NCBI GenBank assembly: GCA_034416335.1
Contig: DAOULV010000024.1
Span: forward strand, 30,652-94,651
Reading direction: 5' to 3'
Origin: Dehalococcoidales bacterium
GTDB lineage: Bacteria > Chloroflexota > Dehalococcoidia > Dehalococcoidales > UBA2162
DNA length: 64,000 bases
This document shows, one piece after another, positions 35,952 to 40,535 of this stretch. The notes beneath the pieces are model-generated. The model made no database searches. It saw only the letters and a list, made by a program, of their open reading frames with translations, and had not been told where the DNA came from. Numbering within the stretch: the first letter of the stretch is position 1; every line of letters starts with the position of its first letter. Position numbers and translations under genes: made by a program.

Positions 35952-37481
35952 GTGCAAAAGGTAATAACAGATGACCTGGATGCAATACTGAATATATTCC
36001 CGCCGCATATACAGACGCCTTTATCTCAACAGCCTGACGTCCACGAACTTATCGAAGTAATACTTGACCTGGGACGTCCGGCGGAAGCGCGTTTTCCGGA
36101 CAGGGAAATCGTCCTGTATCCGGTGGAAGTCAGTGAAGAAGATATCGAATATGTATCCTCACGGGTCGGTACCTTCGGAGATGATAACCGGGCAGGTATC
36201 GAACGCACTTTACACCGCATATCGGCAATCCGCAACCGGCAGGGACGCATCGTGGGACTCACCTGCCGCGTCGGACGGGCTGTTACCGGCACCATAAAAG
36301 TAATCGAAGACCTGATAACCTCCGGCAAGAGCGTTATGCTGCTAGGAAGGCCCGGTGTAGGTAAAACGACAATGCTTCGGGAAATAGCGCGAGTGCTTGG
36401 CGACGATTTCAATAAACGCGTGATAATCGTCGATACCTCCAATGAAATCGCCGGTGACGGCGATATCCCCCACCCGGCAATCGGTCACGCCCGACGGATG
36501 CAGGTAACTTCGCCAATCAACCAGCACGCCGTAATGATCGAAGCCGTGGAAAACCATATGCCGGAAGTTATAGTTATCGACGAGATGGGCACCGAACTGG
36601 AAGCGCTGGCAGCCAGGACCATAGCGGAACGCGGCGTCCAGCTGGTCGGGACCGCCCACGGCAACACGCTGGAAAACCTGATCCTGAACCCGACTCTCTC
36701 CGACCTCATCGGCGGAATCCAGAGCGTGACGCTGGGAGACGAGGAAGCCAAGCGGCGCGGCACCCAGAAATCGATTCTCGAACGGACGTCTCCTCCCACT
36801 TTCGATATCGTCGTCGAAATACAGGACAGGGACAGGGTTGCCATTCATCCTGACGTCGCCGAAGCGGTGGACGCCACCCTTCGCGGACAGGCCGCGCCTA
36901 CGGAGGTACGCTGGCTGGATGACGAGGGCGAGGTGGTCATCGAGAAACCGGCGCCGGTTAAGACTACGGTTAAAAGCGCGAGGAATGCACCGCAGGTCAG
37001 GGAAGGCAAGCTTCACCGGCTGTACCTTTTCGGGGTAAACCGGGGCAGGTTCGAGCAGACAGCCAAAGATATGCTGGCAAATGTGGAGATTGTGGAAAAC
37101 ATCAGGAACGCCGACCTTTTCGTAACCTCGAAACGCTACTACCGACGTAAACCTCAGAAGGTGAAGGACGCTGAAATCAGCAACCTGCCGATATACGTCC
37201 TTAGAAGCAACACTCCATCACAAATAAGGCAGTTCCTGCATACTATTACGCCGGGAAGCAGAAGCTACGAGAATTTCGAAAGGCAGGATTCTCTAACCTC
37301 GGCGCTCAAAGAAGCCCACGAAGCGGTCAACCTGGTGAAAAACGGCGAGGAAGAGGTGGAATTAAGCCCCCAGGGAGCCTATATCCGCCGGCTCCAGCAC
37401 CTCATCGCCGAACGCAATGAACTAAATTCCCAAAGCGCCGGGAAAGACCCTCAGAGACGTGTCAGGTTCTACAGGGGATAA
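35952..37481 (+). CDS. SpoIIIAA/Ycf45-like AAA ATPase with C-terminal R3H domain
   Basis: [35 protein letters not shown], and IRRLQH (R3H). Confidence 0.9.
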
Positions 37482-37512
37482 AGATTTTAAGCCATCAATC
37501 CCTATATTATTC

Positions 37513-38271
37513 CTATTCTCCCGATAATCTCTGAACTAAAGTACTTCCTGTACTGTAACCTAAAACAGTGAGTTTATAACCTGACTGCTTATTACCATCA
37601 ATCAATTTACCCCTGTATAACGAACTAATGGTATTTGAAACAGTAGATGAAGGACGGCGATTCATATCCTTATGTAATTGTGATGTTAAAATGAAATTTG
37701 GATAATAATGCAACAACAGAATAATTGCTTCTTCTTTAGCTGTACAGGATTTTAATACGAGCCTACGCTCACCAAAATCCTCCACTATAAGACTTGCAGG
37801 TAGTTGAATAAATTCAATTAATCTACCTGCAGTATCCATATCAGATGAAATTACATATCGCATCATCTCAGACATAACCCATTGAGCTGCTGCATATAAA
37901 TAACGTAGATCATAAATATTTGGGTCTATTCCACTCTTATGTGTAATACCTCTTTTATTACGCAGAGTATATATTCCACGCACAATCCTTGTCATTACTA
38001 TTTTTAGATCTTGAGATAGGTCTACTGAACGAGCTTCAGTATTTTTTAAAAAATCTTCTATCTCTCCAGTTTTAAATGTTTTTGAATATTCACCCGTAGA
38101 AATATACTGCAATATTTGTACAATAGTTTCCGCGAACTTACCTGGCGTTGCTTTCCCCAGTGTTTGTGTAATTACATCATATTTTATAGATATAAATTCA
38201 TTAACTAGGTCACTCGCAAGTTCACTAGGAATTGCAACTTTTAAAGCTTCCACTAGGTCTGATGGCATCAT
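37513..38271 (-). CDS. Putative HEPN RNase + C-terminal winged-helix protein
   Basis: IYTLRNKRGITH (R-x6-H) in a helical N-terminal domain. C-terminus TVSNTISSL..KLIDG...YKLTVLG resembles wHTH. AT-rich. Confidence 0.65.
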   Translation of the reverse strand: MMPSDLVEALKVAIPSELASDLVNEFISIKYDVITQTLGKATPGKFAETIVQILQYISTGEYSKTFKTGEIEDFLKNTEARSVDLSQDLKIVMTRIVRGIYTLRNKRGITHKSGIDPNIYDLRYLYAAAQWVMSEMMRYVISSDMDTAGRLIEFIQLPASLIVEDFGERRLVLKSCTAKEEAIILLLHYYPNFILTSQLHKDMNRRPSSTVSNTISSLYRGKLIDGNKQSGYKLTVLGYSTGSTLVQRLSGE

Positions 38272-38801
38272 TGTGATAATTCCTTAATCACCTCTGCTGC
38301 TTTAATTTCGCCCGGCTTTGTTAATTGCCAGTCTTTTCCTTTAGAAATAAATAAGTTTTTTTGTCTTTTCATATGTGCTGAAAAATTCGCAGAATCGTAA
38401 ACGGCGTGTTGTTTACACAATTCAACGAGTTCGGCTTTATTTACCATCGGTGTATTGGATTCTAGTAATCCTTTAACCCCTTGCAAAAGAGCGAGTTTTA
38501 TTTGCCCCCTAGATGTAGATTTTTCTTTAAGACTACTAACTATAACAGAATATGTTTCTCCATCGTAATTGATTACCCTTTGCCATTCTTCTTCACTAAT
38601 ATTATGTCGGCTAAAAAAGTCTTGAGCAAATTTTCCCAACGTAGTAGATAAATCGTCATAATTCAGTGTATTATCTGTAATTTTATTACCAGCTAATAAT
38701 GAGTTTAGCAGAATCTTAAAACATTGAACTTGATACTTTTCAGGGCAACTATCTGCTATGGCAATCACTTCTTTAAGGTTATCCATTATATTCTCAAACA
38801 T
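38268..38801 (-). CDS. Hypothetical protein with C-terminal winged-helix-like segment; partner of the HEPN gene
   Basis: RBS AGGGGG before the ATG. C-terminus DSANFSAHMK...WQLTKPGEIKAAEVI. Stop overlaps next start (ATGA). Confidence 0.65.
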   Translation of the reverse strand: MFENIMDNLKEVIAIADSCPEKYQVQCFKILLNSLLAGNKITDNTLNYDDLSTTLGKFAQDFFSRHNISEEEWQRVINYDGETYSVIVSSLKEKSTSRGQIKLALLQGVKGLLESNTPMVNKAELVELCKQHAVYDSANFSAHMKRQKNLFISKGKDWQLTKPGEIKAAEVIKELSQ

Positions 38802-38823
38802 TTTACACCCCCTATTTTAAGTC

Positions 38824-38852
38824 ATTATATACTTATTTATGAAATTTGTAAA
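38824..38852 (-). promoter_or_regulatory. Near-consensus sigma70 promoter of the two-gene cassette
   Basis: Minus strand TTTACA-17 nt-TATAAT. Confidence 0.7.
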
Positions 38853-38984
38853 GTAAGTCCATATATATTGATTACTCATAGGACGTTTCACTTGTGACTC
38901 AATACGCTCCATGAATATGTTATTTTGATCCGTATGATACCCCAAATATATGTTTTATTATTATGACAGGCTATAATATAGTCT

Positions 38985-40535
38985 ATGAGTCGGAACAGCC
39001 CGAAAGATGCCAGGTACAGGTTATCGCGGGAAACTGGCACGGTAATAAAAGACTGGGGCGGCAGGCTGCCGGTTGCACTCGTCTACCCTAATTCCTACTA
39101 CATCGGAATGTCCAATCTCGGGATCCACACCATTTACAGCTTTCTGAACGGCTACGATAACATCGTCTGTGAGAGAGTGTTCCTTGAACAATCCGCCAAA
39201 GACAGCCCTGTTATCCCCCTCAGCCTGGAATCGGAGCGACCACTTCCGGATTTCGCCGTCATTGCCTTTTCAGTTACCTACGAACTCGATTACTTCAACA
39301 TTGTAAACATTCTCAAAGCGAGCGGGATTCCGCTGTTCGCCGCCGAAAGAGATGAAAGTCATCCTCTGGTGATAGCCGGAGGCCCCTGCATCACGGCGAA
39401 CCCGATGCCCCTGGCTCCTTTTTTCGACTGTCTGTGCATCGGTGAAGCTGAAGCAATACTGCCGGATATGCTGCCGGTCCTTGAGGAAGGAATCGGTGAA
39501 AAAAGAGACGACCTGCTGGAAAACCTGAATAACCTGCCGGGAGTCTACGTACCGCAGATAAACGCCGATAGACCGGTGAAGCGACAGTGGGTAAGTGACC
39601 TCGATAAGTTTCAGTCCCACAGCGCTGTCCTGACACCGGATACCGAACTCGGTAAACTCTACCTTATCGAAGCCGAGCGCGGCTGCGGTCACGGCTGCCG
39701 CTTCTGCATGGTCAGTACCATTTTCAGCCCTGTGCGGTACCGTTCGGTGAACAGTATCCTGAAACAGGCTGAGGAAGGCGTAAAACACCGGAAACGAATC
39801 GGGCTGGTAGGACCAGCCGTTTCCGAACACCCGCAATTCGAGGAAATTCTGTCGGGTCTTCAGCAGGCAGGCGCCGAAATTTCCGTCAGTTCGCTACGAA
39901 TAAAACCGCTGCCGGAATCAGCGCTCGGAGAACTGGTAAAAGGAAAAGCCAGAACCATCGCCCTCGCGCCTGAAACCGGTTCCCAGCGACTGCGGGACCT
40001 GATAAGGAAAGGTATAAACGAGGAAGATATTTTACAGGCGATGAAGAAAGTTGCAGTATACGGCATCAGGCAGCTTAAACTGTACTATATGATAGGCCTG
40101 CCCACCGAGACGGAGGAGGATATAGAAGAAATGGTCCGGCTGACTCTCAAGTGCAGGCAAACGCTGGACGGGATTTCACCCGGCTGCCGTATAACGCTAA
40201 GTATCGCACCATTCGTTCCCAAAGCCGGTACTCCATTCCAGCGCCGACCAATGGCGGAATTACAGGTACTTAACCGGAGAGTAGCCGAACTGAAGAAGCG
40301 TCTTTCCCCTTCCGGTATAAGTGTCAAGGCAGACAGCCCGGCATGGAGCCGGGTACAGGGCGTTCTCGCCCGTGGCGATAGCCGGCTGGCAGAAGTACTG
40401 GCTGATACGGAAATTCTTACCCTCTCAGGCTGGCATAAAGCGCTGGCTGACAGAGGTCTCGACGAAGAATATTACCTCAGGGCAATACCCGATGAAGAGA
40501 TACTACCCTGGTCGGTCATAAACACAGGGATATAA
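38985..40535 (+). CDS. Radical SAM protein (B12-binding/YgiQ-like class)
   Basis: YPNSYYIGMSNLG, IAGGP, ERGCGHGCRFC (CxxxCxxC), YYMIGLPTET. Confidence 0.88.
   Translation: MSRNSPKDARYRLSRETGTVIKDWGGRLPVALVYPNSYYIGMSNLGIHTIYSFLNGYDNIVCERVFLEQSAKDSPVIPLSLESERPLPDFAVIAFSVTYELDYFNIVNILKASGIPLFAAERDESHPLVIAGGPCITANPMPLAPFFDCLCIGEAEAILPDMLPVLEEGIGEKRDDLLENLNNLPGVYVPQINADRPVKRQWVSDLDKFQSHSAVLTPDTELGKLYLIEAERGCGHGCRFCMVSTIFSPVRYRSVNSILKQAEEGVKHRKRIGLVGPAVSEHPQFEEILSGLQQAGAEISVSSLRIKPLPESALGELVKGKARTIALAPETGSQRLRDLIRKGINEEDILQAMKKVAVYGIRQLKLYYMIGLPTETEEDIEEMVRLTLKCRQTLDGISPGCRITLSIAPFVPKAGTPFQRRPMAELQVLNRRVAELKKRLSPSGISVKADSPAWSRVQGVLARGDSRLAEVLADTEILTLSGWHKALADRGLDEEYYLRAIPDEEILPWSVINTGI

Follow-up and report, generated by a model that had tools for sequence, protein, structure and literature searches.

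A candidate two-gene toxin-antitoxin or abortive-infection-like cassette with an HEPN-like effector and an exchangeable winged-helix partner in a Dehalococcoidales genome

A stretch of 64,000 nucleotides (nt) from a Dehalococcoidales bacterium (GenBank assembly GCA_034416335.1, contig DAOULV010000024.1), hereafter the window, carries an AT-rich cassette of two genes, A (177 amino acids, aa) and B (252 aa), inserted between two housekeeping genes. All coordinates are positions in the window, and A and B are both read from the minus strand. The cassette is most plausibly, though by no means certainly, an autonomous two-gene module of the toxin-antitoxin (TA) or abortive-infection (Abi) kind, in which B would be a ribonuclease (RNase) toxin of the HEPN superfamily and A a swappable antitoxin or repressor with a winged helix-turn-helix (wHTH) domain. 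The reading follows from a conserved HEPN motif in B, a coupled wHTH partner with a disordered linker, the exchange of that partner between loci, a patchy distribution with foreign GC content, a solitary insertion flanked by housekeeping genes, and the decay of some copies. What we infer for the cassette is that B cleaves RNA and is toxic, that A neutralises it, and that the operon is autoregulated; the same applies to any trigger or phage phenotype.

The N-terminal domain of B

HEPN domains are recognised by an Rx4-6H motif, a polar residue (N, D or H) directly after the arginine, and an upstream acidic residue that often lies in the context Ex3[KR] (PMC3710099). The motif of B, R104-N105-K-R-G-I-T-H111, has the Rx6H form with Asn after the Arg, and E48 is in place as the upstream acidic residue, its context being E-x3-Q and not E-x3-[KR]. 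Among 72 diverse B-family members, with identities down to ~20%, the only invariant residues are R104, H111, D121 and G238, while G44, E48, Y101, W131 and E135 are conserved in at least 90%; R104 and H111 are also invariant in each of three alignments of B (26, 115 and 72 sequences). An earlier sequence-only reading of the window had proposed an RNxxxxH-type HEPN domain in B, and the conservation of R and H required by that proposal is found in these members. The same reading placed LRNKRGITH at 37939-37962; the nonapeptide is present, but it occupies 37939-37965, the shorter interval spanning RNKRGITH.

Similarity to an HEPN family was also detected at the profile level. A consensus of the most divergent B members matched the Pfam family Abi_C across the motif (E = 0.0014) and, more weakly, HEPN_Cthe2314 (E = 0.067). 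When the divergent consensus was searched against plasmids with tblastn, it retrieved a Bacillus mycoides "abortive infection family protein" (WP_215589326.1, E = 5e-4, 80% of the query), which is itself a bona fide Abi_C member (E = 3.8e-18). An hhalign comparison of the diverse B profile with this protein gave a probability of 89.5% (E = 2e-6, 130 columns), and with a 38-sequence alignment of the Abi_C family 84% (E = 7.6e-6, 129 columns). RNKRgiaH is paired with RNxxGDxH, at the same Rx6H spacing, and E48 with the invariant E157 of Abi_C. A reversed profile scored 12.5 and 15 column-shuffled profiles at most 17.6, compared with 45.3 for the real match. B of the window had no Abi_C match in Pfam at E ≤ 1, and Abi_C was not among the best 25 of 63 Pfam families for the 72 B members. 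Taken together, there is good but not conclusive support for the N-terminal domain of B as a predicted divergent AbiJ-type HEPN domain (Pfam Abi_C).

The B. mycoides gene that bridges the two families lies on plasmid p479 (locus L061:1530-6122), between a gene for a DEAD/DEAH-box helicase and, beginning 19 nt downstream, a hypothetical gene of 216 aa; this locus may represent an Abi_C system of its own, with several genes.

Winged helices in both proteins

Homologues of B numbered 153 in a 90%-clustered database and those of A 46; none carries a Pfam domain, and all those named by their source are "hypothetical". An exhaustive search with the B profile returned 801 representative clusters at 50% identity (469 at E ≤ 1e-10). 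With few exceptions, the full-length members of the family are ~250 aa long. HEPN domains are all-alpha units of ~100-150 residues with a four-helix bundle at their core. The AlphaFold2 model of B (mean pLDDT 85.9) is all-helical over residues ~3-155, followed by a short beta-hairpin and a C-terminal winged helix at ~175-250. A diverse B-family profile matched ScaR (E = 1.6e-4) and MepR (E = 3.5e-4) in the PDB, and in Foldseek the B model was paired with MepR, ScaR and IdeR at probability ~1.0 but E ≥ 0.15. The C-terminal winged helix is well supported, and it dominates the Foldseek results obtained with the full-length model. Sequence and profile searches of the PDB with B and A returned only wHTH matches, and Foldseek searches of both models against the PDB, and of B against a viral library, gave nothing at E ≤ 0.001.

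The model of A (mean pLDDT 81.9) begins with a helical hairpin (residues 2-37) and, after a disordered linker (39-53), continues with a small alpha/beta unit and a winged helix (96-175). Its Foldseek matches were all weak and all to winged helices (ORC2, MCM8, Sso10a, LysR-type and MarR-type). The sequence-only reading had noticed that the two proteins end in similar wing-helix segments, and this is borne out by hhalign, which aligned residues 120-177 of A with residues 194-251 of B at a probability of 80.7% (P = 1.3e-5); winged helices in both proteins are likewise recovered by the models and profiles. Neither A nor B had a significant match in Pfam, NCBIfam, PADLOC or PHROGs, so the cassette corresponds to no named system in these scans, as had been suspected. 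Family scans with the 72 diverse B members returned only wHTH matches, and the alternative partner types described below again gave nothing significant.

Three cysteines (C19, C27 and C129) and D136 are invariant across all 44 partners of the type found in the window (A1), including one that is only 27% identical. These residues could form a metal or redox site that connects the winged helix with the N-terminal hairpin. Where hosts of A1-type copies are annotated, they belong mainly to Dehalococcoidia and to subsurface lineages. No conserved cysteine is present in the inspected sequences of a second partner type, A2.

Distribution of the cassette and exchange of the partner

Relatives of B were found in 47 of 185,579 species-representative genomes, spread over more than 15 phyla. 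The hosts include Dehalococcoidia, Planctomycetota, Acidobacteriota, Nitrospirota, Alpha- and Gammaproteobacteria, Myxococcota, Actinomycetota, Verrucomicrobiota, Bacteroidota, Gemmatimonadota, Zixibacteria, Lentisphaerae, a candidate-phyla-radiation bacterium and one archaeon, with the closest homologues of the cassette in metagenome-assembled genomes of Dehalococcoidales and Chloroflexota. Copies are also present in RefSeq genomes of cultured strains, namely Bradyrhizobium oropedii Pear76, Ensifer sp. B1-9, Lutimaribacter pacificus DSM 29620, Sphingomonas fuzhouensis and Sphingomonas sp. NIC1, in all cases as "hypothetical protein".

In 43 of 47 loci, B is preceded by an open reading frame (ORF) of 165-200 aa whose end abuts or overlaps its start. 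These partners fall into at least three sequence types: A1, A3 (reached from A1 by iterated hidden Markov model (HMM) search) and A2 (39 loci), the last occurring chiefly in phyla such as Alphaproteobacteria, Actinomycetota and Acidobacteriota. A1 and A2 are built alike, with a helical N-terminal part, a linker of low complexity and a wHTH at the C-terminus, and the C-termini of both align to the wHTH of B by hhalign. Remote homology between A1 and A2 was considered and rejected at the sequence level (hhalign probability 0.2%). The partner is exchanged between non-homologous types while B is kept.

No third gene is conserved across the B loci. At A3-type loci (L006:7127-7510 and its duplicate L007:1373-1756) an extra ORF of 127 aa, with no Pfam match, abuts the start of the partner gene and may be a third component in this clade.

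In 40 of 44 loci the GC content of the cassette lies below that of its flanks, the mean difference being 8.7 GC points. Its neighbours differ in every genome, and the 150 ORFs lying within two genes on either side of the cassette (±2 genes, 44 loci) are overwhelmingly housekeeping. PADLOC matches at E ≤ 1e-10 among these 150 were few and mostly to generic domains (dCMP deaminase, AAA ATPase). The only clear defence system seen near any copy is an EcoO109I-type restriction endonuclease with an N6/N4 methyltransferase, ~6 kb off at L004:14473-16255. The only mobility gene seen to adjoin a partnered cassette is a DDE_Tnp_1 transposase gene directly 5' of an A1-B pair on one metagenomic contig (L011:5536-7266).

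Decaying copies were also seen: L057-L059 have B broken into two ORFs, and a fragmented or frameshifted partner is found in L038 and L059, the latter retaining remnants of both genes. The cassette is evidently lost as well as gained.

The insertion site

The insert lies between genes for an R3H/SpoIIIAA-like ATPase and a B12-binding radical-SAM protein, and GC is 0.30-0.37 over 37500-38999 (~34% for the insert) against ~0.50-0.63 in the flanks (~52% for the flanking genes). For an empty-site comparison, 80 metagenomic loci with relatives of the flanking ATPase were used. The gap between the two genes, 1503 nt in the window, is only 26 nt in L097 (ATPase 84% identical), 193 nt in L064, 264 nt in L065 and 469 nt in L083, the closest loci with synteny kept, and both A and B are absent from the site in all four (ATPase identities of 70-84%). 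The insertion at the ATPase/radical-SAM site is real, in agreement with the AT-rich insert described from the sequence. The insert was most likely acquired horizontally, and the cassette is most likely autonomous and horizontally mobile.

In more distant relatives the same site is occupied by an unrelated TPR-repeat gene of 365-418 aa, with GC below that of the flanks (L089:6693-7949, L094:6804-7901, L095:6903-8009 and L098:4439-5560), and it is on account of this gene that the gap is considered a variable intergenic site. A small zinc-ribbon-like ORF is found there in L083 and a small ORF in L065. It looks as if accessory genes repeatedly land at this site.

The sequence-only reading had also described an 11/12 direct repeat flanking the genes, with the proviso that it might be chance. 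Both copies exist, but their meaning as a flank does not hold: an equal end-to-end match was reached by 44 of 500 shuffles, and the repeat is one of 14 comparable short repeat families of the region. The right copy sits in the leader of A, between the -10 box and the Shine-Dalgarno sequence, and AT-rich inserted DNA continues ~140 nt beyond it, to ~38960, so that the repeat is not the boundary of the insert and is best read as chance. A transposon-like target-site duplication was rejected on the same shuffles and because the right copy lies within the leader of A and not at the edge of the insert. An Rfam scan of 37300-39100 gave zero matches.

Operon structure and expression signals

The features of the locus are listed in Table 1. 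The two minus-strand ORFs and their coupling by ATGA were confirmed as first described. Gene callers also start B at the second ATG, at 38268, which gives a protein of 251 aa. The TTTACA-17-TATAAT promoter noted from the sequence was recovered as well, and GGAGG or GGGGG sites comparable to the Shine-Dalgarno sequence of the window are present in homologous loci.

Table 1. Features of the A-B cassette and its flanks (window coordinates)
Feature	Position	Strand	Basis and remarks
R3H/SpoIIIAA-like ATPase gene	35952-37481	+	Left flank, housekeeping
Inserted AT-rich segment, ~1.5 kb	37482-38984		From ATPase stop codon to radical-SAM start codon
Direct repeat 11/12, left copy	37484-37495	+	Chance
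Gene B, 252 aa	37513-38271	-	ORF, 153 homologues; predicted RNase toxin/effector
B winged helix-turn-helix, MarR/DtxR type, residues 175-250	37522-37749	-	Profile vs PDB; Foldseek
B all-alpha HEPN-like domain, residues ~12-155	37807-38238	-	AlphaFold2 helices; hhalign vs Abi_C family, profile columns 18-148
RNKRGITH, Rx6H motif (R104...H111), predicted catalytic site	37939-37962	-	Invariant R/H; aligned to Abi_C RNxxGDxH
Gene A, 177 aa (A1-type partner)	38268-38801	-	ORF, 46 homologues; predicted antitoxin/repressor
ATGA stop/start overlap of A and B	38268-38271	-	Couples translation; homologous loci keep a 1-8 nt overlap or direct abutment
A winged helix-turn-helix, residues 96-175	38277-38516	-	Invariant C129, D136, L160, T161; AlphaFold2; hhalign vs B wHTH
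A helical hairpin, residues 2-37	38691-38798	-	Invariant C19-P20, C27; AlphaFold2 helices 2-17, 21-37
Shine-Dalgarno GGGGGTG	38806-38812	-	4 nt 5' of the ATG of A
Direct repeat 11/12, right copy	38814-38825	+	Within A leader, overlaps -10 box; chance
Sigma-70-like promoter TTTACA-17-TATAAT	38852-38824	-	11/12 consensus positions; best site of the region; consensus match only
B12-binding radical-SAM gene	38985-40535	+	Right flank, housekeeping

Upstream of A, several cassettes have extended -10 boxes of the form TATGATATAAT (L004:7285-7465 and L012:7279-7459), and in L004 the extended -10 element TATGATATAAT is present twice, in tandem. This suggests that a conserved promoter style travels with the cassette.

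Proposed mechanism and alternatives

The cassette has the compact bicistronic form of a type II TA system, with a wHTH protein encoded upstream and a predicted enzymatic toxin downstream, and it shares the sporadic, horizontally transferred distribution of such systems. In the mechanism envisaged here, R104-N-x5-H111 would form, with E48 and D121, a metal-independent RNase centre, probably across an HEPN dimer, the chemistry being that of the HEPN family (PMC3710099). A would bind and silence B and would probably also repress the promoter of the cassette. If A were lost, titrated or modified, for example in the course of phage infection or stress, the RNase would be freed and growth arrest would follow.

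Several observations weigh against this proposal. It is unusual for a type II toxin to have a DNA-binding-type wHTH of its own, and no conserved operator palindrome was found 5' of A in the regions upstream of the partner genes. The best B-family consensus scored 19.1 bits against a gathering threshold of 24 for Abi_C, and no member reaches that threshold. The link to Abi_C appears with the diverse B profile only, a narrow-clade B profile, which is insensitive, giving an hhalign probability of 1.5%. In the reciprocal search, an HMM of the Abi_C family ranked B of the window first of 6,934 ORFs, yet at E = 0.26. Foldseek with the full B model gave no significant HEPN match, the best being Csm6 6tug (probability ~0.6, E = 0.3, TM 0.28). 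There was no match at E ≤ 1e-3 when the protein of the window was searched against 72,556 plasmids and 50,697 phage records. A 290-aa member with the motif RNNRDSVH (Rx6H), found only by the divergent consensus, is encoded on plasmid PL131 of Natronomonas pharaonis DSM 2160 (WP_011324391.1, L062:5001-5873); it adjoins an ISNph3 transposase, no partner ORF could be recognised upstream of it, and this haloarchaeal copy may be a solo variant. Finally, the enrichment near defence genes anticipated in the sequence-only reading was not seen within ±2 genes of 44 loci, where almost all neighbours are housekeeping.

This last result, the missing defence-island signal, is also a mild argument against a second reading, possible but a good deal less probable than a TA-like module, in which the cassette is dedicated to anti-phage abortive infection and is not an addiction system. 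The wHTH of B or A would then sense nucleic acid or protein of an invader, A would set the trigger, and the HEPN RNase would shut the cell down. The effector domain is related to that of lactococcal AbiJ, a proven Abi gene for which phage escape mutants map to a single-stranded-DNA-annealing protein (PMC13064643), and the HEPN and winged-helix (WH) pair of Retron-Kva2 acts as an Abi effector. A partner that is replaced while the effector is conserved fits a specificity subunit engaged in an arms race, and defence genes are likewise distributed widely but patchily, with foreign GC content. However, the seven annotated contexts amount to the one restriction-modification system and the one adjacent transposase mentioned above (L004 and L011), the rest being housekeeping; nothing in the phage and plasmid collections matches the cassette at the threshold given; and PADLOC models give generic wHTH matches only. 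The mechanism would in any case be largely the same as that proposed above, the difference lying chiefly in the biological role.

It is unlikely that A and B are a non-toxic regulatory pair, with the HEPN-like domain of B a sensor of ligand or RNA (compare MtlR-type and nucleotidyltransferase-associated HEPN) that controls the wHTH of B, and A a co-regulator. Winged helices of MarR/DtxR/PadR type, which are typical of transcription factors, are present in both proteins, the cassette lies among housekeeping genes and not in defence islands, and some HEPN families are indeed non-catalytic binding domains. Such non-catalytic domains have, however, lost the Rx4-6H motif (PMC3710099), while here R and H are invariant down to ~20% identity. 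The neighbours vary in every genome and there is therefore no conserved target operon, and a composition that is foreign, an occurrence that is sporadic (47/185,579) and copies that are sometimes decaying are unlike a housekeeping regulator. Very improbable is a spurious HEPN similarity, with B a new all-alpha fold that uses R, H and D for other chemistry (a different nuclease or a nucleotide-modifying activity): nothing passes a curated threshold, the structure search has no significant HEPN match and the motif region (residues 101-120) has the lowest confidence of the model (pLDDT 62-69), but three independent routes (Pfam consensus scan, tblastn and hhalign over ~130 columns) reach HEPN families, two of them Abi_C, and they agree on the motif spacing and the equivalent upstream Glu, with clean controls.

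Beyond the TA-like module favoured here, a more elaborate and decidedly speculative picture is that B is a nucleic-acid-sensing HEPN RNase gated by swappable sensor-antitoxins. In A1 a metal or redox centre (C19, C27, C129 and D136) would make the RNase responsive to redox state or metal in anaerobes, A2 would sense something else, and the family would follow a principle of "one effector, many sensors" that operates independently of defence islands.

Comparison with known systems

HEPN RNases are among the commonest effectors in TA, abortive-infection and CRISPR-ancillary systems. The closest relatives of B are the AbiJ/Abi_C proteins (PF14355), with which it appears to share a homologous all-alpha HEPN core (84-89.5% by hhalign over ~130 columns), the motif spacing R-N-x5-H (Rx6H) and a corresponding Glu ahead of the motif; in either case a metal-independent RNase of biological-conflict modules is predicted. 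AbiJ-type proteins have the HEPN domain at the C-terminus, preceded by one of the AbiJ-NTD domains, and the system is a single gene (PMC3710099, PMC13064643), whereas in B it is N-terminal and followed by a wHTH, with an upstream wHTH partner gene at 43 of 47 loci. B is thus not AbiJ proper, since it falls below the Pfam threshold, has its HEPN domain at the N-terminus and carries a wHTH in place of AbiJ-NTD. The mechanism of AbiJ itself, the founding member of this branch, is still unexplained (PMC13064643).

HepT-MntA, RnlA-RnlB and LsoA-LsoB are, like the cassette, small bicistronic mobile modules of patchy distribution that combine an HEPN RNase toxin (predicted in the case of B) with a dedicated partner, following the general logic of HEPN TA systems as set out in PMC2701414, PMC7641770 and PMC8266594. 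Their partners are an MNT nucleotidyltransferase or RnlB/LsoB, whereas in the cassette a wHTH protein takes this place, with at least three sequence types among the loci, and B, unlike the toxins of these pairs, carries its own wHTH. No sequence match between these families and A or B was found in the family scan or the PDB searches.

The type IX Retron-Kva2 also combines an HEPN toxin with a WH protein; the WH protein alone mitigates the toxicity of the HEPN toxin, and abortive infection proceeds by RNA cleavage. Retron-Kva2 offers a precedent for a winged-helix protein that neutralises an HEPN toxin, but its likeness to the cassette is one of analogy and not homology. Retron-Kva2 includes a reverse transcriptase and a non-coding RNA, whereas the cassette has no conserved third gene, no Rfam match and housekeeping neighbours in the window; its HEPN protein is separate and has no Rx4-6H, whereas B keeps Rx6H and is fused to a wHTH. 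The B profile gave only a weak, wHTH-level match to the Retron-Kva2 WH protein (36ht_B, E = 0.27). This protein was rejected as a homologue of B because its domain make-up differs, with two alpha-beta-beta-alpha-beta domains and an HTH.

In Csm6/Csx1 (CARF-HTH-HEPN), HEPN and HTH-type domains occur in one polypeptide, as they would in B, and Csm6 was the best, although weak, HEPN structural match. These proteins differ from B by a CARF domain and the reverse domain order, and there is no CRISPR context in the annotated loci. The CARF, Csa3 and WH models of PADLOC touch only the wHTH of B, below significance.

Novelty and significance

The cassette had been put forward as undescribed. This stands for the architecture and for the partner proteins, which match no known family, but not for the effector domain, which is of a known kind (the AbiJ/Abi_C branch of HEPN). 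Literature searches on PF14355, and on AbiJ with HEPN and wHTH, turned up no account of this architecture. The B family comprises ~800 clusters at 50% identity in more than 15 phyla, wholly unannotated, and places what appears to be an AbiJ-type HEPN domain in a new setting, ahead of a winged helix and accompanied by a replaceable wHTH partner. Because Pfam, NCBIfam, PADLOC and PHROGs do not detect the family, it is missed by current censuses of defence and TA systems. The copies in cultured strains are open to direct testing. If the TA reading is true, the partners would constitute a new class of antitoxin for HEPN toxins, and the cassette would offer a tractable system in which to learn how AbiJ-type HEPN domains are restrained and released.

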